Position numbers and translations under genes: made by a program
Part shown: positions 24,683 through 64,000 of the stretch, in pieces
Numbering within the stretch: position 1 is the first letter of the stretch
Layout: each line of letters begins with the position of its first letter
Notes under the pieces: generated by a model
What the model saw: the letters and a program-made list of their open reading frames with translations, nothing else
Told to the model about the DNA's origin: nothing
Databases searched by the model: none
Virus record (IMG/VR): IMGVR_UViG_3300006802_016159
From: an uncultured virus (IMG/VR IMGVR_UViG_3300006802_016159)
Taxonomy: Duplodnaviria > Heunggongvirae > Uroviricota > Caudoviricetes
Length of the DNA stretch: 64,000 nt
Strand: one strand, 5' to 3'

Positions 24683-27219
24683 ATTGATTTCAAACTTTTA
24701 AGATCAGATAGCTTAGTGTAAATCTTCACGCTCTGGATAGCAACGATGTTAGCGAAAACCGCGCCATCACCTGTAGGCTGACCCTTAATTAAAACAATAT
24801 CGTCCTGTTTAGGCACGGCATCCATTCCAGACTTGGCTCTATCGAATACCATAACCTTCACTTCGTCAGATTCGTCTTTGAGATCAATTCTAACATAGTT
24901 GTTACCCTTTCTAGACTTGCCATTCTTAGGTTTGGCAGAAACCATTCCTGCAAAAATTACCTCTCTCTCCTTGGAGCCGGTAACTTCCTTAATGGATCTG
25001 ATTCCTTTGACTCTTTCCTTGTAAACATTGCTCAATGAGCCAGAACAGCTGTATCCAAGAAGCTTAGTTTCGTACCACCAATTAGCCAAAGCTTCGTTTT
25101 TCTTGTTAAGCTTGTAGATATTGGTGATCTTCTCGGACTTCTTCTTGATTGTGTCGATGCGAGAATCTCGGATAATCCTTTTACCTTTTTCATTGACTTT
25201 GGTTTTCAACTCCTTGAGGATCGGTACGATTTCGTAATCATACTTTTCGGCCATTTCGTGAATGACCTTCTTCTCACGCGGAGTCATAATGTTCCAAAGC
25301 TGGGCTTCGTAAACCGTGTAGCTACGAGAGTTTCTGTAACCCTCAAAGCATCCAGCCTGAATCAAAGCAGCAAGAACACCAATATTGATACCCGCGCTCT
25401 CGGCGGCTTCAAATACCTCGAACTTATTGTCGTATTCAGAACGAAACTGCTCAAGCTTTTCCCAAGACTTCTCAGAAATACCCTTAATAGAAGTAAGACC
25501 GTAACGGATGTTATCGCCATCGATAGAGAAGTCCATCTTAGATTTCAAAAGGTGAGGCTGCAACAACTTGATGTTGAAATCAGGCATCTCTTTTTGAATC
25601 TTGTAGATTTCTTCCATTGGATCTGGTTCAAACTTGGTCATCTTAAGCAGAGACAAGAAAAACTGCTTAGGATATTTAAACTTCAGATAGACAGTGATAG
25701 CTGCAAGAGCAGCATAGCACAGAGAGTGAGACTTGTTGAACGAATACTTCGCAGAAGCCTCTGCAATATCCCACACAACGTCAGCGATAGCAGGATCAAG
25801 TTTCCTATCAGCGATCTTATCCTTGATCTTTTTCTCCCATTTCGCCATTTCCTCGATCTTCTTTTTACCGACACAACGACGAACCTGCTCAGCGTCTTCA
25901 AGAGTAAGTCCAATCTTGTGAACCATCCTCATAAGCTGCTCTTGATACAAGCAGACTCCACCCGTTGGTTTCAAAATGTCATCAAAGAAGGGATGAATAG
26001 CTTCATACGTTCCATGATTGGTGTATGCAGCGTACTTGTCAATGAATGCAAGCGCACCGGGACGCGCCAAGGCAAGCACCGCACTCATTTCTTCAAGGTT
26101 CTTTGGTTTAACTTTCTTAGCAAATTGGTATGCAAGGTCAGCTTCAATTTGGAACAGTCCATGAGGGTTTTTCAAGTCCTGCATGTTCCTGTAAATCTCT
26201 GGATCATTCAAATCGATGTCCATAACGTTAATGCCAACAGCCTTACACACATCATCAACGACAGACACGCCCCTTAATCCAAGCAAGTCAAGCTTAACAT
26301 TGGAAAGAGCAACATAGCCCATATCATACGAAGCAACAATAGCTTTGTCAGAAGACAATTCTGTAGGACACGCTTCTTCAAGAGGGTCGTAAGAAATCAA
26401 TTGACCAGCAGGATGAACACCCTTATTCTTGTTAAGGTTCCTAAGCTTAAGGGCGACCTCATAAATATGACGGTGGTTTTCGCACCAATCTTGGAAGTCT
26501 TCCTCGTTATCGTAGGCTCTTTGTATAGAATAAACCTGTCCAGCGTCCTTCGGAATCATGTTTGAAACTTGGTTCACGTCAGACTCGCTCATTTCCCCAA
26601 TGATTTTCCCGCATTCTTTTATCAAGAGCTTACTGGACAGGGTATTAAAAGTAAGAATTTTAGAGGTCTTGCCCTTGTATTTATTCTCAAGGTAATGGAT
26701 GACCTCTGGACGCCTGTAATAGCAGATGTCCATGTCAACATCGCACATCAAGTTTCCATCAAGATAGGTAACGCCGTCAACAACAGTGGACTTCGCACGA
26801 ACCTTTGAAACGAAACGCTCGAAATAAAGACCATACTGAATAGGGTCGATCTTTGTGACGCCGATCAAATAAAGAATCAATGAGCCAGCCGCAGATCCAC
26901 GACCCAAGCCCGTTGGAATATCTTTAGCCTCTGAATAATTAATAACATCCCAAACCATCAAAAAATAATCAACGAAGCCAAGTTCCTTGATAACCTCAAG
27001 TTCTTCCTTGGCGCGATCAATGTATTCTTTTTTGTTCTTCTTTTTGTTGATTCCCATCTTGTCGTAGCCGTTCAAAGCCAACGCTCTCAAGAAATCGTAG
27101 TTAGAACAATCTGGTGCGACATTCTCATTGTTCTTCATGGCAGGAGTAATCTCCATCTCAGGGAGACGCACACCATGAATAGGGATATCTAATTTTTCAA
27201 AGTTATCTAAAAAGTTCAT
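24679..27219 (-). CDS. dnaE: DNA polymerase III alpha-like catalytic subunit lacking the PHP domain
   Basis: GLGRGSAAGSL, LYFERF, DVDMD catalytic motif, KLDLLGL, GLFQIE, YQEQLM, FNKSHS and a C-terminal OB fold. Confidence 0.95.
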   Translation of the reverse strand: MNFLDNFEKLDIPIHGVRLPEMEITPAMKNNENVAPDCSNYDFLRALALNGYDKMGINKKKNKKEYIDRAKEELEVIKELGFVDYFLMVWDVINYSEAKDIPTGLGRGSAAGSLILYLIGVTKIDPIQYGLYFERFVSKVRAKSTVVDGVTYLDGNLMCDVDMDICYYRRPEVIHYLENKYKGKTSKILTFNTLSSKLLIKECGKIIGEMSESDVNQVSNMIPKDAGQVYSIQRAYDNEEDFQDWCENHRHIYEVALKLRNLNKNKGVHPAGQLISYDPLEEACPTELSSDKAIVASYDMGYVALSNVKLDLLGLRGVSVVDDVCKAVGINVMDIDLNDPEIYRNMQDLKNPHGLFQIEADLAYQFAKKVKPKNLEEMSAVLALARPGALAFIDKYAAYTNHGTYEAIHPFFDDILKPTGGVCLYQEQLMRMVHKIGLTLEDAEQVRRCVGKKKIEEMAKWEKKIKDKIADRKLDPAIADVVWDIAEASAKYSFNKSHSLCYAALAAITVYLKFKYPKQFFLSLLKMTKFEPDPMEEIYKIQKEMPDFNIKLLQPHLLKSKMDFSIDGDNIRYGLTSIKGISEKSWEKLEQFRSEYDNKFEVFEAAESAGINIGVLAALIQAGCFEGYRNSRSYTVYEAQLWNIMTPREKKVIHEMAEKYDYEIVPILKELKTKVNEKGKRIIRDSRIDTIKKKSEKITNIYKLNKKNEALANWWYETKLLGYSCSGSLSNVYKERVKGIRSIKEVTGSKEREVIFAGMVSAKPKNGKSRKGNNYVRIDLKDESDEVKVMVFDRAKSGMDAVPKQDDIVLIKGQPTGDGAVFANIVAIQSVKIYTKLSDLKSLKSI

Positions 27220-27863
27220 ATCTCAATCTCAAATTTCATCTTGTTCCACACTTCTACGTTCTTCTCAATGTCGTAGACCGCGTCGTGGAGCCTGTGTTCT
27301 TCAAAAGGAATCTCATATTCTTTTAAACAAGTAATTAATGATGTCCTCATGCCCCTCATTGGGGTATTCGTAAGCTTGTATTGAAAAGAAAGAAGATTGT
27401 CTTTCTTGCCATCATACTTGTAATCACCCTTGATAGCGGTGGCAATGGCCTTTGTATCCAAAATCTTCGGCATTAAAAATTTCCAGTCCTTCCCCGCGTA
27501 TCGATAATGATCGCGAATCAGATAAATATCAAAGCCCAAAATATTGTGGCCTACTACATAGTCTGCCCATTCGAACATCTCATGTATCTTTTCAAGAGCC
27601 TCGTATGGATCAATGCCTTCCTTCTTAATTCTTTCTGGATTGTAGTGATTGATACGCGCAGCCTCGGGCGAACACTGTACATGCTTGCGGAACGGCCACT
27701 TGATCAGAATCTCGCTGGATTCAACGATCTTGTCACCTTCCGCTTTAACCAATCCATACTGCCAAGGTTCATTGTTTTCGCGAGACAGAAACAGATTGAA
27801 TGTTTCAACGTCCACGAAACAATATTTTGCCTTCTTGTTAAATCTAAGTAAATGTCCGTCCAT
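27216..27863 (-). CDS. DEDDh 3'-5' exonuclease (DnaQ/epsilon-like)
   Basis: ExoI DVET, ExoII GHNILGFD, LDT, ExoIII HDAVYD. Confidence 0.9.
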   Translation of the reverse strand: MDGHLLRFNKKAKYCFVDVETFNLFLSRENNEPWQYGLVKAEGDKIVESSEILIKWPFRKHVQCSPEAARINHYNPERIKKEGIDPYEALEKIHEMFEWADYVVGHNILGFDIYLIRDHYRYAGKDWKFLMPKILDTKAIATAIKGDYKYDGKKDNLLSFQYKLTNTPMRGMRTSLITCLKEYEIPFEEHRLHDAVYDIEKNVEVWNKMKFEIEI

Positions 27864-27864
27864 A

Positions 27865-28044
27865 TTATACCTCTTCCCAAGTTTGGCGCATTATTTTAGT
27901 TTCTTTTTTGAGAGACTTTTTAAATTCTTCTGCGTCACTTTCTGCTTCCCCTTTTTTATTATATAATATGCCCTCGTATGGCCCAGACCATGTACGGTTA
28001 TGATTGCGGTAAAATATACCGTAACAATTTGACTTAATTTTCAT
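27865..28044 (-). CDS. small hypothetical protein
   Basis: Fills the gap between the PHP and exonuclease genes. Likely start MKIKSN at 28044. Confidence 0.45.
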   Translation of the reverse strand: MKIKSNCYGIFYRNHNRTWSGPYEGILYNKKGEAESDAEEFKKSLKKETKIMRQTWEEV

Positions 28045-28843
28045 TTTGCTTCCTCCATGCTTCAAAGCTAAATTCGTTACTGCAAAAATGATCCAAATTT
28101 GGGCGGCTTAGAATTGATCTATTGTGGATGCAGCGGAATGTCGCATACGGAATCAAATCTTTTCGGTCTTTGTAATAAATACTTTTGACATCGATGATCT
28201 CATGGTGACCATAAGCATCTACCCAACTCACAACAATGTCCCTTAACAAATCATCAAATGGCAAATCATTATCTTCGATTGCAAACCTCACGTTCTCAGG
28301 CTTAAACGTATAAAGCCAATCGGGGTTACATTGATTCATCTTGAAATTGTTATTATAAAGAAATGAGTCGTAAAATGGAACCACGCACATGATATTGTCA
28401 GAACAAAGCCGTTCCAATTTCTTCTTGTCGGTTCGAGGGGTATAATAGAATCCGTCTCTTGCTGCATCAGACCAAATCTTAACTAGATCTTTGTAGCCTT
28501 CTGCATTCTTAGCGATAAGGATAATCTTACTTTCCTTTTTCTTGGACTCGTCCTCCTTAACGGAGGCGTCATCCAAAACAGTCAACCTAATACCAAAGAT
28601 CATTTGCAAATCATTATCTTCCGCATTGATCTTTCCCTGAAGAAAACCAGAGATATTGTCATCAATCAGAAAGAACTTGTCCATTCCATTCTCCTTGCAA
28701 ATCTCAATAATGGAATCAGGATGAATTTTATTTTCGTCCTTATCTTCCTCGCCCTTCTTAGCCTCATGGGGCTTTTCGAGCGTCAAGATAGACTTGCCAA
28801 GAGAATAATGACTCTTGAAAAATGGTAAAACTTTAAAGTCCAT
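28034..28843 (-). CDS. stand-alone PHP domain of DNA polymerase III alpha (degenerate metal ligands)
   Basis: KSHYSLGKS, IFGIRL, ILIAKNAEGYKDLVKIWS and GFYYTPRTD match the DnaE N-terminus. Confidence 0.85.
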   Translation of the reverse strand: MDFKVLPFFKSHYSLGKSILTLEKPHEAKKGEEDKDENKIHPDSIIEICKENGMDKFFLIDDNISGFLQGKINAEDNDLQMIFGIRLTVLDDASVKEDESKKKESKIILIAKNAEGYKDLVKIWSDAARDGFYYTPRTDKKKLERLCSDNIMCVVPFYDSFLYNNNFKMNQCNPDWLYTFKPENVRFAIEDNDLPFDDLLRDIVVSWVDAYGHHEIIDVKSIYYKDRKDLIPYATFRCIHNRSILSRPNLDHFCSNEFSFEAWRKQNEN

Positions 28844-32610: not shown

Positions 32611-33027
32611 TTACAGGAAAACACCAAACTTTTCTTCAAACCATTCTTTTGTTAGATTATTTACCTCGTCGTATTCTATTTCTATAAATTTAAATTCGTT
32701 TAATTCGGCCCATTTTCTTTTGGCCGTATCCCTTCTGATAGAGTAAAGGAAATTTTCTCTATTTTTATTGTGAAAAAAGGAATTGTAAGAGGAATGTTGC
32801 TGGCCGTTTACTTCAATAGCGATTTTGTATGTCGCATTAAAAATATCAACCTTCATTCTTGAACCGAAGACAGGAAATTCTTCATACACCACATGGTTTG
32901 CCCAGTATGGATAAAGAAATTCTTTGACCTTGCGCTGTAATTTTGACTTTGATTCAGCCTCCCAATCAATGAGATAGCGCGTAACGTCTTTCGACATCAG
33001 TCTCCCGTTAAGGTTGTACAATCGCAC
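32611..33027 (-). CDS. Vsr/DUF559-like endonuclease
   Basis: EEFPV...VDIF...IAIEVNGQQH...RDTAK. Confidence 0.75.
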   Translation of the reverse strand: MRLYNLNGRLMSKDVTRYLIDWEAESKSKLQRKVKEFLYPYWANHVVYEEFPVFGSRMKVDIFNATYKIAIEVNGQQHSSYNSFFHNKNRENFLYSIRRDTAKRKWAELNEFKFIEIEYDEVNNLTKEWFEEKFGVFL

Positions 33028-39406: not shown

Positions 39407-40286
39407 AATAATCTACTGTTTTTTTAATGCCTTGATCTAAGTCTGTCTGATTAAACGGACCAGTCAAGGGGCTGGGACGAAGCTCTTTGGACTTTTGTCC
39501 TTCGTAAGCCTCGACATCGTATCTTAAAAAATGAGTTGGGTATGACAAGCATTCGCATACACGTTCAACATAATCTCGAATAGTCCTCTCCTTACCCGTG
39601 GCGATATTTACTCTCTCGTTTTCAAGATGAAGGTTGTTTAAAATTCCATTAACCGCGTCATCAATATAAATAAGTTCTCTTTTTTGATAACCGCTTCCCC
39701 ACAAAACCGCAGTCTTACCTTCATACTTTGCCGCTGCAATTTTAGCTATCACTTCAAAAATAAAATGCTTGTCTGTAATCTCAAAATCGGGGCCATATAA
39801 CGTGTTAGGAATGAAATAAATATACTTCATGTTATCCTGTTGCGCGAACGCCTCTAATCCCGTAAGCAACATACGCTTAGTCATTGCGTAGATATACAGA
39901 CGTTCATTTGGATCGCCCTTCAAAATGTTTGCCTCCGTCTTATCCTGTTCATCATCAGGGTAGGCACAACTGGTCCCCATCGTAATCATTTTGGCTTGAG
40001 GTTGATACCTGCGCCAGAAATGCATAATATTAGTATTGATGAGTTGGTTATTCTCCCACTGGTCAGCTTGATGATTAAGACAATAATCGCCAGCTTTAGT
40101 GTCTACAGCTAGATGAAAAATGTAATCTAACTCGTGGTCGATACCCTCGTTATCAATGGGGCGTAAGAGATTTCTTTCTGAACTGTTGGAAAAATAAAGC
40201 TTAACATTAGGGTATCTCCTCTCGATGCCCTTAACCAAATGTCTACCTAAAAACCCGCTATGTCCTGTTACTAATACGCTTTTCAT
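39375..40286 (-). CDS. GDP-L-fucose synthase-like epimerase/reductase
   Basis: TGHSGFLG, GTSCAYP, YAMTK, PNTLYGP, LWGSGYQKRELIY. Confidence 0.8.
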   Translation of the reverse strand: MKSVLVTGHSGFLGRHLVKGIERRYPNVKLYFSNSSERNLLRPIDNEGIDHELDYIFHLAVDTKAGDYCLNHQADQWENNQLINTNIMHFWRRYQPQAKMITMGTSCAYPDDEQDKTEANILKGDPNERLYIYAMTKRMLLTGLEAFAQQDNMKYIYFIPNTLYGPDFEITDKHFIFEVIAKIAAAKYEGKTAVLWGSGYQKRELIYIDDAVNGILNNLHLENERVNIATGKERTIRDYVERVCECLSYPTHFLRYDVEAYEGQKSKELRPSPLTGPFNQTDLDQGIKKTVDYYVKQKYGNKM

Positions 40287-40900
40287 TATGGAATCTCATT
40301 AGGATCGTATCCTAGTAGTTTAAAATCTTCAATGAACACGGTCCTTACTATATCTTGACTCTCTTCGTCATAATAAGATTCATTTTTTTCTCGATTAGAC
40401 TTGTGTATTTTTCTAAACTCTGGCATCGCATTAGGTAAATCGATTCTAATTCTTTTTAATTCTTTCCAGTCCTCATCAAATGACTCTAATTTTCCAATGA
40501 AATTCATCGAATCAAGATTGTCTTGTAGATTTTTCATATAATCAACCTGAGTCTTCCAATCATGCAGGTATTGCGAGTCTTGTTTCCATTCTCTACAAAA
40601 CTCTTGGAAATTTCCCTTGAATCCATGAGCCTGCTTTCGACTCTCCAAATTTTTATGGTACGAAAAAAGAGACAACATTCTTGCGTATGGGTTCCTTACA
40701 AAAGTAAAAGTGAAAATATCCTTTTCATCGCTCCATTTTAAATAATCAATCATCCTATAGTGACCATGCTTATACAGCCAATGGTCTGGATCGCTCTGAG
40801 GGATACCATGAGCATCCACTTGATTTAACATATTAAATATACATCCTGTCCCACATCTAGGGATGGCGATGAATTGAACATTTAACTTTGAAAAAATCAT
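40286..40900 (-). CDS. carbohydrate sulfotransferase (Sulfotransfer_2-like)
   Basis: FIAIPRCG (5'-PSB), FVRNPYARMLS (3'-PB), FIGKLE, DFKLLGY. Confidence 0.8.
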   Translation of the reverse strand: MIFSKLNVQFIAIPRCGTGCIFNMLNQVDAHGIPQSDPDHWLYKHGHYRMIDYLKWSDEKDIFTFTFVRNPYARMLSLFSYHKNLESRKQAHGFKGNFQEFCREWKQDSQYLHDWKTQVDYMKNLQDNLDSMNFIGKLESFDEDWKELKRIRIDLPNAMPEFRKIHKSNREKNESYYDEESQDIVRTVFIEDFKLLGYDPNEIP

Positions 40901-55465: not shown

Positions 55466-56139
55466 GCATACAACGAAAAAATGCTTTCGGTCTCCGCTTT
55501 ATCCTTTCCGAAAACGAACTGGTTTGTTCCCTCTTCGTCGTTCGCCCTGAAAAAGCTCTGTTCAAAGCCTTTCTCTTTCATTGCTTCGATTGTACTTTTG
55601 ATGTCCTCTGGACCTTCAACGTAGGCTTCGCCGCATACGAATTCAAAATCCTTGATCTTGTTGCTTCCCTTCAAGAGTTCCAAGTCATAATTTCTAGTAT
55701 GAAGTTTGAGGAAGTTAGGTTGCTCAGGTAACTGTCCGACCATTGTATCGAATGGGACAAATAATCCTTGGTCGAAGTCGCCCTTTGGATTGAATTTGAT
55801 TTCATTGAAATCGTAGAACTTGTTGTTCATGTCAGGGTGTGCCAATTTCTGTACGCAGTAATCATACCACATACCTGCATTGAAAGGCACTACGATGTCT
55901 CTAAATAATGACACGTTCTTAAGAAGCATTTCATAGTTTGGCTTATATGGTTCGAAAGCGTAAACTCGTTTGGCTCCCTTCATTGCGCAGTTGAGAGAGA
56001 AATACCCACAATGCGCTCCGACATCAAGCACCACGCAGTTCTCAGGCAGGATTTGAATGCGATAATGATTCGTATAAAAAATCTTATCCAAGATCATCTG
56101 GTCGTTAGAGAACGAACGGATTGTAAGTTCGGGTGTCAT
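55462..56139 (-). CDS. FkbM-family SAM methyltransferase
   Basis: VLDVGAHCGYFS, VYAFEP...NYEML. Confidence 0.82.
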   Translation of the reverse strand: MTPELTIRSFSNDQMILDKIFYTNHYRIQILPENCVVLDVGAHCGYFSLNCAMKGAKRVYAFEPYKPNYEMLLKNVSLFRDIVVPFNAGMWYDYCVQKLAHPDMNNKFYDFNEIKFNPKGDFDQGLFVPFDTMVGQLPEQPNFLKLHTRNYDLELLKGSNKIKDFEFVCGEAYVEGPEDIKSTIEAMKEKGFEQSFFRANDEEGTNQFVFGKDKAETESIFSLYA

Positions 56140-56363
56140 TATTGAAATCGTGAGCTAGGTGTTGGATACTTCTTCAAATTAGATACACGCACAACTAAGA
56201 TGCTGCTAGGAGGATAAAACTCCATAACGTTATTATTACTGAATGTGTGGCGGTAACCTTTGTCAGCAATGGCGGCGGCGTGTTCCCTCGCCTGCTCAGC
56301 GTTGTCCGCTTTATATCTGAATGTCTTACCGTTGATTAAATGAACTGATACTATTGGTTTCAT
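56139..56363 (-). CDS. small hypothetical protein
   Basis: 74 aa, coupled on both sides. Confidence 0.55.
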   Translation of the reverse strand: MKPIVSVHLINGKTFRYKADNAEQAREHAAAIADKGYRHTFSNNNVMEFYPPSSILVVRVSNLKKYPTPSSRFQ

Positions 56364-57466
56364 ACTGCTTTCAAAACTGCTTCCACCATCTTCTCTGAAC
56401 TGAAGTCCTCTTGGAGCTTCAATCCTTCTGTGTTTTCTCTTGACTTTTCAACTCGGGCGACCGCTTCCTCACAAGCAGCAATAAATTCTTCTTCGCTGAA
56501 ATCAAAAATCTGTCCTTGATTCCAAGGTCCACCCTTATGGAAAAAGAATCCGTCTGCTGCATCAATCTTACCCTTCGGCTCGACAAGTACGGAGTTCTTT
56601 TCGTTTGCCCATTCCTTGTAACCATGAGGGTTCATAATGACGGCGTGTTTACCCAATGCCACAGACTGAAACTCTGGAAGACCCCAACCTTCGCCTCCGC
56701 TCATGCCGATGATAATATCACCTGAGTTCAAATAATCATTGTAGAGTTTGTTCTGAACCATGTGACCGTAGAACTGGACGTTGAAAATCCTTTGTCCACC
56801 AGTTAAATGTTGAATGATCTTTTGATATTCTTGTTCGGCGTTAGGGAAGTGAGGGTTATAAATACAAGGTTGTAAGAAATATTTAGGATTGTTACCGAAT
56901 CTCTTGATCCACGCTCGAATCAATCTCTCATGGTGCTTTCTCTTCTCGAACTTACCCGCAATATTAAATGTCACGCGCCCATCTTGGATCTTCTTCCCCT
57001 CGATCTTTTTGAAATTGTATTTGTCGAATGCCAATGGAATGTAGTCGGACTTGATTCCATACTGTTCAAATACAGACTGAGTATATTTTGAAGAGAACGC
57101 AACCCTATTATTTTTAGCAATATTAATTTCCGCTGGGGTTGGCGCGTCCAGTTCATAGAAGGTGAGAAGCAAAGGGTCATTAGAAATAGACTCCATTGAT
57201 CCATTCAAATGCCATAGCTTGAAGCTCGGCATCGACCTCTTATGCTTGTCTAGTCCATTGTTCAACAAGTCATTGACAGTCTTTTGAAATTCGGGGTTTT
57301 CCTCTTGTGCGCTGAAATCGGGCTGACCAATCAAGAACATCTTGTCAAGGTTGGCAATATCTTTATACTTGTCGTAGTTATCCAAGTAAGTTCTAAGCAA
57401 CAAGATGCTTGTCTGTCCAAATGAAACGCTGTTTAATGGTAGATGCGCCGTAAATTCTTTACTCAT
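56360..57466 (-). CDS. GT4-family glycosyltransferase
   Basis: GKFEKRK, SGGEGWGLPEFQSVALGK. Confidence 0.82.
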   Translation of the reverse strand: MSKEFTAHLPLNSVSFGQTSILLLRTYLDNYDKYKDIANLDKMFLIGQPDFSAQEENPEFQKTVNDLLNNGLDKHKRSMPSFKLWHLNGSMESISNDPLLLTFYELDAPTPAEINIAKNNRVAFSSKYTQSVFEQYGIKSDYIPLAFDKYNFKKIEGKKIQDGRVTFNIAGKFEKRKHHERLIRAWIKRFGNNPKYFLQPCIYNPHFPNAEQEYQKIIQHLTGGQRIFNVQFYGHMVQNKLYNDYLNSGDIIIGMSGGEGWGLPEFQSVALGKHAVIMNPHGYKEWANEKNSVLVEPKGKIDAADGFFFHKGGPWNQGQIFDFSEEEFIAACEEAVARVEKSRENTEGLKLQEDFSSEKMVEAVLKAV

Positions 57467-58053
57467 AAATTGTCTTTGTCTTTGATTTTGTCACGCAGAA
57501 TATTCAATACTCTGTTATGTAATGAGATTGCAGTTTGGATTGAAATATTCATTTTTTCTGAGATAGTTCTCCAAGTTAACTTCTTGTCTTGGAAATATCT
57601 TAGCTCAATGATCCTCTTCAGCCTCTCGTCAGAGATGCCTTCGTAACAGAAGCGAAGTTCGTCATACTGGTACGGGTCTTCATCCGTATCGTACGATGAT
57701 TTCTGAGAATCTTCGATGAAGTCTTTGATCTCTTGGTTATCGAAGTTGACCAAAAGACGGCGGGAATTGATGGAGTTTAGACAAACATATCTAGCATGGT
57801 TGCCTATATGAGTGGAGAGCTTGGTCTTCCTGTCTGGATCGTAATTGCAGGCGCAGGACCAAAGGATGAAGTCTTTCTCCTTGTAGAGATCGTCAGGGTT
57901 TACACCCGAATTTTTTAAAGCTTGAGAGTATTTCTGGCAAATTTTATAAAATACATTCTCGTATCTACGACATAATTCTAAATAACTGTCGTTGCAACTC
58001 TCATTTTTAATCTTTAAAACTAAATCTTTGTCATTTACTTCTTTTATATTCAT
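57463..58053 (-). CDS. phage RNA polymerase sigma factor (sigma70 regions 2 and 4)
   Basis: YDPDRKTKLSTHI (region 2), IIELRYF...TWRTISEKMNISIQT (region 4 HTH). Confidence 0.82.
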   Translation of the reverse strand: MNIKEVNDKDLVLKIKNESCNDSYLELCRRYENVFYKICQKYSQALKNSGVNPDDLYKEKDFILWSCACNYDPDRKTKLSTHIGNHARYVCLNSINSRRLLVNFDNQEIKDFIEDSQKSSYDTDEDPYQYDELRFCYEGISDERLKRIIELRYFQDKKLTWRTISEKMNISIQTAISLHNRVLNILRDKIKDKDNL

Positions 58054-58690
58054 TGAGATAATCCACAAGAGAATCTATATGATCCTCTAATAGATGTAGA
58101 CTGGTCCCAACGTCTCGCCATTCAATTTTATAATCGGCAAGTTCCTGAAGTTTAACATCATTTTCAGCCTCGTCTACGTTCGGAGCTTCGACGTAGCTCC
58201 TTCCGCAATCTATCCAACCCGTAGGTTCTTCCATTGGACCCGTGAATGTTTGAAATTGTTCGTATTTCTTGAGATGAACCAAGGTTCCTCCAAGAGATTT
58301 CAACCAAAACACTTCATCGCTGGGGTAATCTGGATTAGCATATCTAATGTCAGTAACAATAGCCCAACCTCCTGCCTCAACAATTTTTTGAATTTCAATT
58401 GTGGCTATATTTGTCCAGTGTGTTCCTTTAGATTCACGCCTACGGATTCCTCCCCACGCCACCATCAATGGACGAAGGAGTTCTTTTTCTTTTGAATCTT
58501 GAGTCCAGACATCCTTATCGAAATAATTTCTTAAGACAGGAGACATTTCAGTTTTCAAAGCGTCAGCCAAGGCAACTCGCTTGGAATTTTCATTCATTCT
58601 CTTCAATAATAATTGACAGAGAGTGTCCTTACCCGTCCTTGCGAAACCACTAATGCCGAGAACGCCGCCGCCTTGTACTTTTTTACTCAT
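58031..58690 (-). CDS. deoxynucleoside monophosphate kinase
   Basis: GISGFARTGKDT, LADALK, RPLMVAWG, VTDIRY. Confidence 0.8.
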   Translation of the reverse strand: MSKKVQGGGVLGISGFARTGKDTLCQLLLKRMNENSKRVALADALKTEMSPVLRNYFDKDVWTQDSKEKELLRPLMVAWGGIRRRESKGTHWTNIATIEIQKIVEAGGWAIVTDIRYANPDYPSDEVFWLKSLGGTLVHLKKYEQFQTFTGPMEEPTGWIDCGRSYVEAPNVDEAENDVKLQELADYKIEWRDVGTSLHLLEDHIDSLVDYLNEYKRSK

Positions 58691-59327
58691 AAACTTTCAT
58701 TTTAAATTCGAAATAAGCATGTAATTCTTCTGGAACGTGGTGTCTCCACTTGCCTACTTCTGGTGTGTTTGAAATGTGATGACCATTGATTGCAAAATTT
58801 GGGGCGGTTTGATCGAATGATGTATTCGCAGCATCCTCCTTCAATTTGCGCATGTCATACTTTTCTTGTACCAATGTAATGAAATTTTCGTCAATTGTCA
58901 AGTCTAAAAGCTTACCTAACTTGTTCAATACGAAACGGTAATCTCCTAAACCATCAGGATATATCTCATCATAATTAAATATTCCGCGATGCTCAGTCTC
59001 GCCCAAGGCATTGATACGCTTTACCATGTCAATCGAGCGTGTAACATGAGGATTATTAATCAAACTTGTGATTTTTTCTTTTGTGTCGTACTTTTTATTC
59101 ATGTTGTCCTCAAGGATAGTATTCCCAATTGAGACAGCAAGATCCCTTGCATTACGTGTACAAAGAATCGTCTTGGCTCCATGAGAATCCCTTGCTCGAA
59201 TGTGTTCTTCTGGCAAGTCATGATGTGACAGCACAGAATCATCAATCAATTCTGCGGCAAGCAATCTGAGGATTGACGTTCCAGTTCTGGGGGGTGCGTA
59301 AATTTGAAGATCAATAAAATTGTCCAT
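58683..59327 (-). CDS. sulfotransferase-domain protein
   Basis: PPRTGTS, RNARDLAVS, YDE, GKW (Sulfotransfer_1-like). Confidence 0.65.
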   Translation of the reverse strand: MDNFIDLQIYAPPRTGTSILRLLAAELIDDSVLSHHDLPEEHIRARDSHGAKTILCTRNARDLAVSIGNTILEDNMNKKYDTKEKITSLINNPHVTRSIDMVKRINALGETEHRGIFNYDEIYPDGLGDYRFVLNKLGKLLDLTIDENFITLVQEKYDMRKLKEDAANTSFDQTAPNFAINGHHISNTPEVGKWRHHVPEELHAYFEFKMKVYE

Positions 59328-59362
59328 AAAAATATGACAAAGAAAACCTTTGAAATATTCAA

Positions 59363-60013
59363 TTAAGTACTTTTATGTTTTTTTATTTCGGAGGTATAAT
59401 ATTCATGCAGTTCTTCAGGAATGTATTTTTTCCATTTTCCTGTCTCTGGGTTCTCGGAAATATGCTTGCCGTGCAAAGGGAAGTCCGCGCAAACTTTTTC
59501 AAATGAATCTATTTTGTTTGTGGCCTCTTTTAGTTTATTTAAATTCAATTTCTTGTTAATGGAATCAAATACTTCTTTTCTACAATCCAAACCATAAAAT
59601 TCATTCAATGTCTCAAATAAAAACTCATAATTGCCTAGTCCATCAGGAAATATCTCATCGTAATTTAAAAACAATCGAAATTTCGTACGAGGAATTGCGT
59701 GTACCATTCTCACCATATTAAATGCATTCGAAACAATCTCATTGTGTATGAGTTCATTGATTTCTTGTTCCGTTTTAAATTCACGCTTACCCTTCAGCTT
59801 CCCTCTCAGAATGCTGTGACCGATTGAAATTGCTAAATCCTCATAATTTCTCACCATATACACAGTCTGCAAAGATTGCTTGTCCCGTGCATCAATTTCA
59901 TTTAAATCCAAATCATGATGCTTTTTCAATTCTACTCCCATCTCACCGCTCACCATCTGGACAATAGTAGAGCCACATCTAACAGGCGATCTCAAAATTA
60001 CTTCTTTCTTCAT
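59363..60013 (-). CDS. sulfotransferase-domain protein, tandem paralog
   Basis: PVRCGST, RNYEDLAIS, NYDEIFPDGLG, HISENPETGKW. Start placed at MKKEV, 6 nt after a TATAAT. Confidence 0.65.
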   Translation of the reverse strand: MKKEVILRSPVRCGSTIVQMVSGEMGVELKKHHDLDLNEIDARDKQSLQTVYMVRNYEDLAISIGHSILRGKLKGKREFKTEQEINELIHNEIVSNAFNMVRMVHAIPRTKFRLFLNYDEIFPDGLGNYEFLFETLNEFYGLDCRKEVFDSINKKLNLNKLKEATNKIDSFEKVCADFPLHGKHISENPETGKWKKYIPEELHEYYTSEIKKHKST

Positions 60014-60047
60014 AATTCTATTATACGTAAAATCCGCCAATTGCTGG

Positions 60048-60426
60048 GCCTGATCTTCGAACTTACCATTCAGGCTACACCTCTCCCAATGCACGTATAA
60101 TAAAAAATACTATACGGCAAAGGGAGAGTTATACCAAACGAGTATAACCTGACTTTCGTCAATTGAATCTTTTTGGTATGCGTCCACAACTTACGCCTAC
60201 CTCACCCTGTCTGTCGTGCAGGGACTTCAATTCTCTGTTCCGTTTTATCTGGAACCATCCACAGAATTACTTCTGTTTCAGCTTGTGGTCCGCGTTACAG
60301 TTAGCCCTCTACCACAAGATTTTTTATTTGTAAAGCGATATTCATATTCGAGTTGCCATCCTCGCGGGTCATGTTTCAGATCTCCGTCGCTTGTCTACGC
60401 CATACAAAAGTATGGAGGCATGATCT
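60048..60426 (-). ncRNA. candidate structured non-coding RNA or cis-element
   Basis: About 10 consecutive inverted repeats, including a GAAA tetraloop on the minus strand, downstream of a TTGACA promoter. No convincing ORF. Confidence 0.45.
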
Positions 60427-60428
60427 TT

Positions 60429-60457
60429 AAAATCTCACATTTTTCATATTTTGTCAA
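60429..60457 (-). promoter_or_regulatory. putative sigma70-type promoter pointing into the structured region
   Basis: TTGACA-N17-GATTTT with extended TG. The -10 is weak. Confidence 0.4.
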
Positions 60458-60469
60458 GAAAAAAAATGA

Positions 60470-60498
60470 TTGACATTGTGCGAAAAATAGTCTAAAGT
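60470..60498 (+). promoter_or_regulatory. sigma70-type promoter (divergent)
   Basis: TTGACA-N17-TAAAGT at the strand switch. Confidence 0.6.
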
Positions 60499-60510
60499 AA
60501 ATAACACATT

Positions 60511-60618
60511 ATGATTTGGATATTTTTTTTGATTTTATTCGTGTTGGCTCGATCATTTTTCGTTGAGTTGTTCTATAATAAAAGTAATAGGGAAAGCTTA
60601 TGGAAGTATATGGATTAA
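60511..60618 (+). CDS. possible 35-aa membrane microprotein
   Basis: MIWIFFLILFVLARSFFVELFYNKSNRESLWKYMD, directly after the + promoter. Confidence 0.3.
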   Translation: MIWIFFLILFVLARSFFVELFYNKSNRESLWKYMD

Positions 60619-60959
60619 TTTTAATTGGCCTCGCGGTTTCGGTGGCATGTTTCATCTTGTATGATACTGATGCGCTGGAAGCGTATGCCAAAGTCCTGTT
60701 CAAATCCGACCACCCCATTAACAATCCAACTGGTCCCTCTACTAATATGACTCTGTTGGAGAGGCTCCAATTCAAATATCCTGATAGTTTTTGGGTTGAT
60801 CTTGTGAATTGTTCAGTCTGTTTGACTGTTTGGTTGGTAGCAATCTTGAGCCTGATTGTAGGAATATTTAATCCTCTTATCTGGGCCGCTTCAATTTTTA
60901 TTGCATGGTCGGGCTATTTTATTTTAAAAATTTTGCAGCATCATGGATCAAAGGATTAA
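60600..60959 (+). CDS. membrane protein, DUF1360-like
   Basis: Hydrophobic segments and LVNCSVCLTVW (CxxC..W). Confidence 0.55.
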   Translation: MEVYGLILIGLAVSVACFILYDTDALEAYAKVLFKSDHPINNPTGPSTNMTLLERLQFKYPDSFWVDLVNCSVCLTVWLVAILSLIVGIFNPLIWAASIFIAWSGYFILKILQHHGSKD

Positions 60960-61488
60960 AGATAGATTTAAACAACAGGAAGAAAGCTGGGACTTCACCA
61001 CTTTTATAGACGGCAAGCTTCATAGTCACAATGAGGCAATGGAAAATTTAAAAAAGGAAATGGACGAACAAGACGCTAAAATAAAAGAGAAAGAGGAACA
61101 AGAGAAGCTCGAAAACTCACCCGTCGAACCAGAAGTCGTATCAGAAATTCTGTCAGAAGAATACGGGACAAATCAAGAGGCGACGGCAACGCGCCATGTA
61201 TTTGGTGGCATGGAGGAATACAATTCTTGGTATCTTTCAAACCAAGATAGGTTTACTGAGGCCCAACAGAAGCCATCCGATTCTATAGTCAAGCTTCAAG
61301 AGTGGTCGTCCAAGGGCTGCGCATGTAATCGAGACAAGAGACGAGCATTTGCTAGAGTAGAGTGGAGACGCCTCATGTTAGAGAATTACGAAAAGACAGA
61401 TTTGATCGAAGTCATTAGACAGATCACGGGCAAGGACGAAGTCGAGTTTAAATTAGGTGAAGATTCCTTCATCGTACACTCAAAATAA
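60943..61488 (+). CDS. hypothetical protein
   Basis: 181 aa with an acidic coiled N-terminus and a GCACNR motif. Confidence 0.6.
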   Translation: MDQRIKDRFKQQEESWDFTTFIDGKLHSHNEAMENLKKEMDEQDAKIKEKEEQEKLENSPVEPEVVSEILSEEYGTNQEATATRHVFGGMEEYNSWYLSNQDRFTEAQQKPSDSIVKLQEWSSKGCACNRDKRRAFARVEWRRLMLENYEKTDLIEVIRQITGKDEVEFKLGEDSFIVHSK

Positions 61489-61583
61489 TTCCTCCAGAAA
61501 AAAAACAACTTTAAACATCTTTTTACTTTCTTTCTGTAGAAAAATGTTGTAATATACTCTAACACAATCAATTTCAAAAGACA

Positions 61584-64000
61584 ATGACTAAATTTACAAA
61601 CGAATTTTCAGCAGAGGTATGGTCAGACACCTACAAACACCACAAAGACGAAACAGTAGATGACACATTTAGAAGAGTTGCAACTGCAATAGCTTCCGTC
61701 GAAAAAAACAAAGAGCTTCGCCAGAAATATCAAGCCGAGTTCGAGGATATGCTCTCAGATTTCAAGGCAACTTCTGGAGGAAGAATTACCGCTAACGCAG
61801 GAGCGGGTTGGGAGGGAACCACTCTTATGAACTGCTTCGTCGGGCCAAAGCCAAAATACGATCAGGATTCTCTTGAAGGCATTCTTGATGTTCTTCGTTC
61901 ACAGGCTCAAACCCTCAAGTCCGAGGGTGGTTGGGGAATGAATTTTTCCTTCATTCGCCCACGTTCTTCATTCATTCATGGGATTGGCGTGGAAACTCCC
62001 GGCGCAGTCAAATTTATGGAGATTTTTGATAAATCTTCTGATGTAATTACCGCTGGTTCTGGCAAGAAAAAGAAAAAGAAAGAGGGTAAAACCAAAATAA
62101 GAAAGGGGGCAATGATGTCAGTCTTGGACTGCTGGCATCCCGACGTTGTTGAGTTTGTTACAGCAAAGCAACAAGAAGGCAGGCTTGAGAAGTTCAATAT
62201 GTCTGTGAATTGCAGCACGGAATTCATGGAAAAGGTCAAGAAGGCTAAGAAAGGTCAGGCTCAGACTTGGGATTTGATTTTTCCAGATACGACACACGAA
62301 AAGTATTGTGAGGAATGGAATGGTGATATTCAAACATGGAAAGCTAAAGGTTATCCAGTTGTAGTTCATGATACTATTAATGTGTTAGATTTGTGGAACG
62401 CTATTATGGACTCCACTTACAATCGCAATGAGCCGGGGGTTCTATTTATGGACACCGCAAATAAGACTCATTGTTGGAACTATGGCGGTCCCGATTCTTT
62501 CATTGCAGCTACAAACCCTTGTGGAGAACAGTGTCTTCCTTTCGGTGCCGTTTGCAATTTAGCTTCTATCAATCTTACTCAGTTTATTGACATGGATTCT
62601 AGGGCGTTTAATTTAAAAGCAATTAAAAAGCAAGTCAAGAGGCTTGTCCGATTCTTGGATAACGTCAACGAATACACCAACGCTCCTTTGGCAGAATATG
62701 AAGCTTCTATTAAGGGAAGAAGGCGTATTGGTATCGGTGTAATGGGTTGGGGTTCTGCTCTTTATATGCTGAAGACTCGTTTTGCTTCTAACAAAGCCGA
62801 ACAAATAAAAGACGAGTTGATGAAGGTCATTACTCATACTGCTGTTGAGGCGAGCATTGATTTGGCTATTGAGAAGGGAATGTTTGAGGGTTGTGATCCA
62901 GAACAACACGCGGCGGCGCCCTTCTGGCAGCAGATTGACCTTCCCCAGAGTCTCATAAATAAGATCAAGAAATACGGCATTCGTAACTCCGCGCTGTTCT
63001 CCATTCAACCAACGGGCAATTCCTCTGTGTTTGCGAATTTGGTTTCGGGTGGATTGGAACCTGTCTTCCTGCCAGAATACATTAGGACTTCCATTGTAAA
63101 CGTGTGTCCTGATGACCTCTTACCTCACTGTCCCAAATATTGGGAGGGGGAAATGAAGGAAACGGACGTGTTCAAGTGGACAACTGAGGGTGACACCAAG
63201 ATTCTCCGTGGAGAATTCGAAGGGATTGTTTACAAGATTGACGGAAACCGTGGTCTTACCAAAGAAACTCTGGTTGAAGATTATGGAGTGAGAGTCTTGA
63301 AGGAATTGGGAGAGTGGAAGGCAGACGCGAAATGGGCGGCTACCACGACGAACCTTTCTGTTCAGGAACACGTCAAGGATATGCAGGGCTTCGGTAAGTG
63401 GATTGACTCTTCGATGTCCAAGACTGTGAATCTCCCTCAAGATTATCCTTTTGACAGTTTCGAGGAATTGTATTTGGACGCTTATAATACTGGCTATCTC
63501 AAGGGTATCACTACTTATAGAGATGGAACCATGACCTCTGTACTTTCCGCCGCAAATAAAGAAGATAACAAGGAGGAAGAAAAGATCGTCAAGACTCTTG
63601 CTCCTAAGAGGCCAAAGGAAATGAAAGCCGAGCTTCATCATCTTACAGTTCAAAAAAGAAAGTATTATGTTGCAGTGGGACTATACGGTGGTGACCCATA
63701 CGAAGTGTTCACTGGAAATAATTACGACGCAGAGGGTGAAGTGTATATTCCAAATAAGATATTCGAAGGAACCATCGTCAAGAAGAAGCGTGGTTCCTAT
63801 GAGTTCTGTGTGGAGGAAGGTGAGTGTTTCAGCTTGACCAATGGACACGCTGATGATACGGCTGATGCTCTTACTCGTTCTATTTCTACTGGCTTGAGAC
63901 ATGGGGTTGATATTTCTATTCTAGTTCATCAACTTGAAAAGACCAGCGGCCCGCTTGTCAGTTTTTCCAAAGCTCTTGCGAGGACTCTCAAGAAATACAT
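61584..64000 (+). CDS. nrdJ: class II (adenosylcobalamin-dependent) ribonucleotide reductase, 3'-truncated
   Basis: Manual translation from ATG 61584: GGRITANAG, LMNCFV, GGWGMNFS, RKGAMM, WHPD, FNMSV, EPG, TNPCGEQ, CNLASINL, RRIGIG, SIQPTG, SMSKTVN. Absent from the ORF track because no stop lies inside the window. Confidence 0.9.
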   Translation, partial: MTKFTNEFSAEVWSDTYKHHKDETVDDTFRRVATAIASVEKNKELRQKYQAEFEDMLSDFKATSGGRITANAGAGWEGTTLMNCFVGPKPKYDQDSLEGILDVLRSQAQTLKSEGGWGMNFSFIRPRSSFIHGIGVETPGAVKFMEIFDKSSDVITAGSGKKKKKKEGKTKIRKGAMMSVLDCWHPDVVEFVTAKQQEGRLEKFNMSVNCSTEFMEKVKKAKKGQAQTWDLIFPDTTHEKYCEEWNGDIQTWKAKGYPVVVHDTINVLDLWNAIMDSTYNRNEPGVLFMDTANKTHCWNYGGPDSFIAATNPCGEQCLPFGAVCNLASINLTQFIDMDSRAFNLKAIKKQVKRLVRFLDNVNEYTNAPLAEYEASIKGRRRIGIGVMGWGSALYMLKTRFASNKAEQIKDELMKVITHTAVEASIDLAIEKGMFEGCDPEQHAAAPFWQQIDLPQSLINKIKKYGIRNSALFSIQPTGNSSVFANLVSGGLEPVFLPEYIRTSIVNVCPDDLLPHCPKYWEGEMKETDVFKWTTEGDTKILRGEFEGIVYKIDGNRGLTKETLVEDYGVRVLKELGEWKADAKWAATTTNLSVQEHVKDMQGFGKWIDSSMSKTVNLPQDYPFDSFEELYLDAYNTGYLKGITTYRDGTMTSVLSAANKEDNKEEEKIVKTLAPKRPKEMKAELHHLTVQKRKYYVAVGLYGGDPYEVFTGNNYDAEGEVYIPNKIFEGTIVKKKRGSYEFCVEEGECFSLTNGHADDTADALTRSISTGLRHGVDISILVHQLEKTSGPLVSFSKALARTLKKY

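Follow-up and report, generated by a model that had tools for sequence, protein, structure and literature searches.

What does the longest non-coding stretch in 64 kb of an uncultured phage do, and does it act as RNA or as DNA? The stretch in question, positions 60048-60426 of a 64,000-nt piece of DNA from an uncultured virus of the Caudoviricetes (IMG/VR record IMGVR_UViG_3300006802_016159; the whole piece is called the window here), is packed with hairpins and lies at the strand switch between two divergent operons. A sequence-only reading of the window had proposed that this element is a large structured RNA or 5′ leader, or alternatively a structured replication origin. We put at roughly 45% the probability that the region encodes, on the minus strand, a structured RNA of a small and previously undescribed family in uncultured aquatic phages, probably the leader of a 35-kb operon. 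Taken separately, a conserved structured RNA on the minus strand is the outcome we would expect somewhat more readily than not, and its role as an operon leader is a plausible but tentative addition.

The element occupies most of a 586-bp gap (60014-60599), the longest between open reading frame (ORF) calls in the window; the second longest is 170 bp. Its GC content is 0.435, compared with 0.254 in the rest of the gap and 0.25-0.36 in five other gaps, and the AT-rich part (60427-60599, GC 0.254) coincides with promoters. The sequence-only reading had described the region as the sole long intergenic stretch, less AT-rich than other gaps, and had named ten stems in it. These descriptions hold, and all ten stems are exactly complementary, two of the arms lying at 60111-60116 and 60251-60255. 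One of them, aattct/agaatt (60229-60234 with 60263-60268), competes with a hairpin carrying a GUAA loop (60261-60276), which is preferred by both the energy model and a homologue fragment. In comparison with dinucleotide shuffles, the region was more stable than expected on both strands (z = -3.73 for the minus and -4.60 for the plus strand; none of 100 shuffles was as stable). Because shuffles are a weak null, the energies were also compared with those of 335 genomic 380-nt segments of the same phage after regression on GC. The whole-fold energy of the minus strand was unusual (4 of 335 segments as low), and when only local hairpins were counted (pair span of at most 60 nt), 3 of 335 segments were as low on the minus strand and 1 of 335 on the plus strand. 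Together, the shuffle z-scores and the local-hairpin ranks indicate that the region is hairpin-packed beyond chance.

Parts of the element recur in other lineages. Contigs of four public runs were aligned to positions 56000-64000 at 85% likeness, with the phage's own contigs at depths of ~4-6. In run X3 (labelled freshwater, 2017), a contig matched 60286-60345 (block A) alone, with at least 255 unlike letters on each side. In run X9 (labelled estuary, 2024), from a different study, a contig with a depth of 29.6, compared with 4-5 for the phage, matched both 60168-60209 (block B) and block A, its flanks being unlike the window over at least 255 letters. The two blocks are directly joined in X9 (60209 to 60286; side 42), skipping 76 nt of the window, and the depth of the X3 bin at 60272-60538 was 12.3 compared with 5.4. 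About 100 nt of the element is thus common, at 85% identity or more, to at least one other lineage with unrelated flanks. Searches with the proteins encoded on either side returned, for the sulfotransferase, only its own cluster (5 members at 98-100% identity) and, for the 119-residue protein p119, itself alone. By these searches both genes flanking the element are orphans, and the blocks are therefore more widely conserved than the adjoining proteins.

The sequence next to the blocks was compared through overhangs of 30 letters each, which were reverse-complemented and aligned by eye against the minus strand of the window. Behind 60345, the overhangs of X3 and X9 are alike at 27 of 30 letters and are unlike the window. 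In three hairpins, the stems differ while the pairing is kept. The first lies after block B, where the window has a 10-nt spacer followed by UGAC-GAAA-GUCA-GG and X9 has a 9-nt spacer followed by UAGC-GAAA-GCUA-GG; the loop and trailing GG are retained, and two inner pairs are exchanged on both sides. The second follows block A and reads ACAGAA-GUAA-UUCUGU in the window (loop 15 nt after the block) and CUGAGA-GUAA-UUUCAG in X3 (6-7 pairs, loop 16 nt after the block), with four pairs altered on both sides and one further pair being G-U in X3. The third precedes block A. Here the window has AUGACCCG, then CGAG-GAUGGCAA-CUCG, then 3 nt, whereas in X3 and X9 AUGGCCCG (one U longer in X3) leads into ACUCC-UUGGCU/UUGGCA-GGAGU, which stands 2 nt ahead of the block; the four-pair stem of the window and the five-pair stem of X3 and X9 are unrelated, while the loop UGGC and the preceding AUGRCCCG are common. 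As far as such sequence comparison reaches, the paired changes in these three hairpins lend real, if thin, support to a conserved structure on the minus strand.

The 76 nt missing from X9 comprise whole hairpins and the 5′ strand of a predicted closing helix, and the 3′ strand of that helix, after 60168, is replaced in X9 as well. This combined loss and replacement is the behaviour of an optional RNA domain. The proposed family would consist of two sequence-conserved blocks amid hairpins of varying stem and conserved pairing, would include the GAAA- and GUAA-capped hairpins, and would carry the 76-nt two-hairpin insert as an option. That the element is the first example of an undescribed class of large, multi-domain phage RNAs of 260-400 nt, with a ~100-nt invariant core, two GNRA hairpins and an optional insert, borne by several unrelated aquatic phages amid differing genes, is doubtful, though worth entertaining; such a distribution would suit a self-contained functional RNA more than a leader tied to particular genes, and candidate roles for the class would be a polymerase-binding antiterminator, a ribozyme or an early decoy against host defence. 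The features of the element and its borders are collected in Table 1.

Table 1. Features of the hairpin-packed element and its borders, by position in the window
Feature	Position	Strand	Basis
Hairpin-packed non-coding region, candidate structured RNA	60048..60426	-	Stems, folds, background ranks, GC 0.435
Six-pair hairpin CCAUAC-UUUU-GUAUGG at the 5′ edge	60400..60415	-	Complementarity, fold
Predicted long-range helix AAGCGA/UCGCUU (60387-60392 with 60333-60338)	60333..60392	-	Minimum-free-energy and centroid folds agree; fold only
Inside the long-range helix: hairpin 60349-60364 and predicted 3-pair helix (60384-60386 with 60365-60367)		-	Fold
Four-pair hairpin, loop GAUGGCAA, 3 nt ahead of block A	60349..60364	-	Complementarity, overhangs
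Conserved block A, 60 nt, at least 85% identity with otherwise unlike X3 and X9 contigs; includes the 3′ strand (60333-60338) of the long-range helix along with an A-rich linker and, of hairpin 60282-60318, the 5′ strand and loop	60286..60345	-	Loose ends on both sides
Fourteen-codon ORF MNIALQIKNLVVEG, stop TAA, starting exactly where block A starts	60301..60345	-	ATG at 60345
Eight-pair hairpin, 21-nt loop	60282..60318	-	Complementarity, folds
Variable insert, 76 nt, without counterpart in the X9 homologue; holds GUAA hairpin 60261-60276, hairpin 60237-60255 and most of hairpin 60205-60223	60210..60285	-	X9 joint, fold
Six-pair hairpin, GUAA tetraloop	60261..60276	-	Fold, X3 overhang read by hand
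Conserved block B, 42 nt; holds hairpin 60175-60201	60168..60209	-	X9 joint, loose end before 60168
Four-pair hairpin, GAAA tetraloop	60150..60161	-	Complementarity, fold, X9 overhang read by hand
3′-side hairpins 60128-60148 (7-9 pairs), 60081-60128 (long, imperfect) and 60048-60075 (6 pairs)	60048..60148	-	Complementarity, fold only
Imperfect palindrome, 50 bp, with two back-to-back TTGACA boxes	60439..60488	.	Inverted repeat; skew sign change
TATAAT box 6 nt upstream of the first operon gene's start codon	60020..60025	-	Sequence
Sulfotransferase-domain protein, 216 aa, first gene of the minus-strand operon	59363..60013	-	PF00685, E 2.8e-08
Hydrophobic 119-aa protein (p119), first gene of the divergent plus-strand operon	60600..60959	+	Without known family

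The homologous fragments could also be read at the level of DNA. In T4-type phages, PeSLs have been described as small composites of terminator and promoter located at exchange points (PMC4122927), where they sit at points of genome mosaicism (PMC4122927, PMC2839356). The element might be a regulatory and recombination cassette of this kind, its stem-loop and promoter serving as a crossover point and its other hairpins being terminators, operators or chance. The conserved blocks do lie between otherwise unlike sequences in X3 and X9, as would be expected of sequences that mark junctions, and assemblies of run X4 break or branch within the element, between 60063 and 60334 (contigs end at 60063 and start at 60334, with loose ends before 59958 and 60326). 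The phage also has UvsX-, helicase- and primase-type replication genes, and the hairpin 60282-60318 with its T-run looks like a terminator on the plus strand. Such a cassette would, however, leave the paired changes in three hairpins outside the blocks and the conserved GNRA loops unexplained, and the conserved part, ~100 nt with flanking hairpins, exceeds a promoter plus stem-loop. PeSLs, moreover, recur within a genome, whereas neither blastn nor a covariance model of part of the element (model R1) found a second copy within the 64-kb window. We regard this explanation as unlikely.

The choice of strand rests on the details of the hairpins. GAAA and GUAA loops and the G-U pair of X3 appear only when the minus strand is read; on the plus strand the loops would be UUUC and UUAC, and the G-U pair would turn into an A-C mismatch. 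Throughout the hairpin region, GC skew has the same sign as in the minus-strand operon; the change of sign comes at ~60400-60450, by the TTGACA boxes. Seen from the plus strand, the hairpin 60282-60318 is followed by a T-run (60319-60329) and has the look of a terminator, which could end a small RNA of ~220 nt starting after a TATAAT at 60096-60101. This word occurs near many gene starts in the phage, and the plus strand has the better shuffle z (-4.6) and the top local-hairpin rank (1/335). Conservation and a conserved hairpin nevertheless extend past the supposed terminator (60331-60364), the TATAAT is without a -35 box, and the terminator, with its 21-nt loop, was passed over by the terminator scan. 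A plus-strand small RNA is accordingly a poor prospect in our estimate.

On the minus strand, the element stands ahead of a 35-kb operon of ~45 packed or overlapping genes with its first ATG at 60013, encoding sulfotransferases, a kinase, a sigma factor, glycan synthesis genes and replication genes. Transcription would proceed from the minus-strand TTGACA at 60452-60457 and start near 60422, directly before the first hairpin; a leader of ~409 nt would then head the operon. In this proposal the RNA would act on its own transcript, keeping RNA polymerase elongating through the long operon, or alternatively would protect or process the transcript's 5′ end. Its position, after an early-type promoter and ahead of 35 kb that include a sigma factor and replication genes, fits an antitermination RNA, a mode of action that we judge improbable on what is so far an analogy with known systems. 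Occurrence in other gene contexts would fit a self-contained RNA equally well.

A riboswitch was also considered. No minus-strand terminator-like site was found in 59800-60800, and no Shine-Dalgarno word precedes the first operon gene. Lacking both a terminator and a ribosome-binding site that could be sequestered, the element is unlikely to be a classical riboswitch, and we do not think that the RNA acts as a metabolite switch.

The back-to-back TTGACA boxes belong to an imperfect palindrome, a possible operator through which a dimeric regulator could act on both early operons. Its plus-strand box (60470-60475) is followed by a 17-nt spacer and TAAAGT, and the resulting promoter (60470-60498, score 10/12) is the only one accepted by the scan; it is directed away from the element, towards the right-hand genes that it serves. 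The A-run between the two boxes has one extra A behind 60458 in the X9 strain.

The strand switch also raised the alternative of a structured replication origin, or another single-strand DNA initiation site. The element does sit at the window's cumulative GC-skew minimum, adjoins the AT-rich segment 60427-60599 (GC 0.254) and neighbours an operon with replication genes, and paired stem changes would preserve DNA hairpins as well as RNA ones. The skew, however, follows gene direction at all four strand switches of the window (~10.6, 15.0, 24.7 and 60 kb); since it flips at every one of them, the minimum here is not specific to an origin. No iterons were found, there being no direct-repeat family beyond chance pairs, and DnaA-box-like words occur at chance (240 compared with 234.9 expected). 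The hairpin part is GC-richer than the genome, and GNRA loops and a G-U pair suggest RNA. These results speak against the origin put forward at the outset, which we now regard as very improbable.

The element matches no known RNA family. None of the 4227 models of Rfam 15, among them RNase P, tmRNA, riboswitches, ribozymes, GOLLD/ROOL/HEARO and group I/II introns, matched anywhere in the window at gathering score; searches at E ≤ 10 over 801 and 411 nt gave only snoRNA, lncRNA or 13-nt fragments (E 0.5-8), and ARAGORN found 0 tRNA or tmRNA genes in the 64 kb. The Rfam scan and ARAGORN thus agree with the initial impression that the element resembles no tRNA, tmRNA, RNase P or known ribozyme. 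RNase P-like and T-box-like word resemblances, noticed by eye, were discarded because their motif order is wrong and Rfam gave no match.

Searches for relatives at the DNA level gave little. Against phage GenBank records, blastn of 59900-60700 gave no match, and 60150-60360, searched at E ≤ 10, had only chance matches of 19-36 nt in unrelated genes. Looking for relatives in IMG/VR through the neighbouring proteins yielded 0 loci for the sulfotransferase and 1 weak locus for p119, and none of ten ribonucleotide-reductase relatives there (58-64% identity) has the neighbouring genes or the element. The sulfotransferase query in JGI metagenomes returned one uninformative 1.5-kb locus. DNA patterns of the element, exact or with gaps, hit 0, 0, 22, 6 and 9 loci in IMG/VR and 0 and 118 loci in GTDB genomes, all of them chance by blastn against the element. 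The covariance model R1, built on 60278-60400, found only itself in the window and nothing in 5 IMG/VR records.

No open frame explains the region. Every frame is interrupted by stops. The longest open stretch, on the plus strand at 60153-60470, lacks an ATG start, and its translation matched nothing among 5.8 billion predicted proteins, not even itself. Six read-through frames, with stops as X, gave no Pfam or PHROG match better than E 0.16. With stops in all frames and no protein family matched, a conserved ORF does not account for the region.

Several observations weigh against a conserved leader RNA on the minus strand. No full-length homologue was found in the IMG/VR, GTDB and JGI scans, which gave chance matches only. 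None of the runs listed for the stretch is an RNA run, and two metatranscriptomes had next to none of its words. The paired stem changes come from three 30-letter overhangs of one alignment, matched by eye, and the GUAA hairpin is the softer case, its alignment requiring an indel of 5-6 nt. The whole-fold energy of the plus strand is ordinary (42 of 335 segments as low). Divergence between strains, which locally ranges from 0 to ~8% within the phage, is uninformative: in X9 the gap (9 differences and 1 indel in 667 nt) is not more conserved than the neighbouring gene (18 in 1212 nt). With respect to the original proposal of a structured RNA or 5′ leader, then, the paired changes, the GNRA loops and the lack of an ORF or Rfam match count in its favour, while the homology consists of fragments read by eye.

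Further points in this direction concern transcription. The statement that the element lies just downstream of a TTGACA promoter is right in that the minus-strand box faces it, but the -10 of this box is poor (GATTTT at 17-nt spacing) and the accepted promoter faces away. Given the TATAAT at 60020-60025, the operon might start without a leader, and the element would then be a separate RNA gene. Terminator-like sites in the operon are at chance (15 compared with 15.2 expected, and 14 compared with 12.4), as are promoter counts; the terminators therefore give no sign of a need for antitermination.

A further rival is a small or decayed minus-strand protein gene starting at ATG 60345, with block A as the shared 5′ end of a gene family and the other hairpins incidental. 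Block A begins exactly at this ATG, and X3 and X9 carry GGAG 3 nt ahead of it. The X4 overhang before 60326 would keep the frame open as a hydrophobic peptide, carrying it on as a hydrophobic N-terminus; the lengths of both blocks, 60 and 42 nt, are divisible by three; and the GC content and skew of the hairpin region are coding-like. In the window, however, this frame stops after 14 codons, again at codon 17, meets a third stop (TGA) at 60204 and ends at 60072, and the frame of the X9 homologue, read by hand, would stop 5 codons past block B. No family matches any frame, no called protein matches, and a coding sequence would not be expected to show paired stem changes. We consider a protein gene of this kind unlikely, and retain the structured minus-strand RNA as our preferred reading.

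Two other sequence features of the element were noted. The word CUGAAACA occurs twice on the minus strand, at 60269-60281 and 60368-60380, each time directly ahead of a helix. The hairpin region is bordered exactly by direct repeats of 11 nt (60047-60057 and 60417-60427, 10 of 11 identical). A mobile-element origin gains no support from them, as about one such border repeat pair is expected by chance in 540 nt by our estimate, and no empty-site joint for a putative insertion was seen in contigs of the runs aligned.

The phage itself is fairly large, and near-identical DNA occurs in 20 public runs of 12 studies labelled freshwater, estuary or seawater metagenome. Genes in the window include a DNA polymerase in pieces, a DnaB-like helicase, a primase, a UvsX-like recombinase and a sigma factor, together with a very large sugar-modification cluster. 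The class II-type ribonucleotide reductase, from 61584 onward, has a best identity of 64% to IMG/VR phage contigs and shares 48% identity with a 642-kb ‘uncultured phage’ record. The minus-strand operon opens with two tandem sulfotransferase-domain genes (58683-60013; PF00685, E 3e-07 and 3e-08), followed by a P-loop kinase and a sigma-70-family factor (57463-58068). Another sulfotransferase-like gene, the third, is found at 40286-40900, and the entire 34-57 kb is a glycan-modification cluster.

The DNA polymerase is apparently split over three consecutive minus-strand ORFs (24679-28843): an N-terminal piece (28034-28843) corresponding to positions 61-242 of the phrog_405 profile, an ‘exonuclease subunit’ ORF (27216-27863), and a body (24679-27219) corresponding to profile positions 323-1090, with a gap of 170 nt (27864-28033) between the first two. 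An HNH/homing-endonuclease-like ORF (32611-33027, minus strand) is found between the helicase and UvsX-like recombinase genes. Only 7 of 44 gene starts have a Shine-Dalgarno-like word of any kind, and several start codons (20183, 27863, 52268, 60013 and 60600 among them) have a TATAAT 0-30 nt upstream. The scarcity of the former and the start-proximal position of the latter hint at leaderless or short-leader mRNAs and a host that relies little on Shine-Dalgarno pairing. At 56077-56311, strains in runs X4, X7 and X9 differ from the window at ~18 of 235 nt, almost all of them third codon positions, with strain differences of 0-3% in the adjoining stretches, which suggests a recombination mosaic in the population.

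To our knowledge, the non-coding RNAs of phages are little explored, and only a few that are both large and structured are known. The core of the element is better conserved than the protein genes around it, and the element stands at the start of an early 35-kb operon of sigma factor, replication and glycan genes; this makes it a good candidate for a master control of infection. Among known leaders, the riboswitch-like wcaG and manA motifs are structured and lie upstream of sugar or polysaccharide genes in aquatic phages. The element differs from them in having no Rfam match and no visible minus-strand terminator or ribosome-binding-site platform.

Of the ornate RNAs, some are phage-borne and were first found in lake or rumen metagenomes. 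GOLLD, ROOL and OLE are described as forming RNA-only complexes (PMC12286853). Like these, the element would be a long multi-hairpin non-coding RNA, but it is smaller, has no Rfam match even at E ≤ 10 and is not beside tRNAs. With PeSLs it shares short conserved pieces between unrelated flanks; unlike them, it is single-copy in 64 kb, is much longer and has stems with paired changes.

The closest parallels in position are put and EAR, cis-acting folded RNAs that are made right after an early promoter and head long operons. The former is ~70 nt long with two stem-loops, the latter, of Bacillus eps operons, ~120 nt, and HK022 has one put at each of two divergent early operons. The element, at 260-400 nt with at least 10 hairpins, has no sequence or Rfam similarity to either; the analogy is one of position, and here the minus-strand operon alone would have such a leader. 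The putRNA of HK022 is described as acting alone on elongating polymerase (PMC9378689). Should the element prove to be trans-acting or catalytic, it would represent a new RNA class; in either case there is now a defined sequence for experiments, and the family can be enlarged by searching raw assemblies. The place of the element, after a back-to-back promoter pair and ahead of 35 kb of genes, is analogous to that of put and EAR, and action on RNA polymerase without other factors would make it a second natural example of the kind known from HK022 put, in a phage and host of a very different kind.

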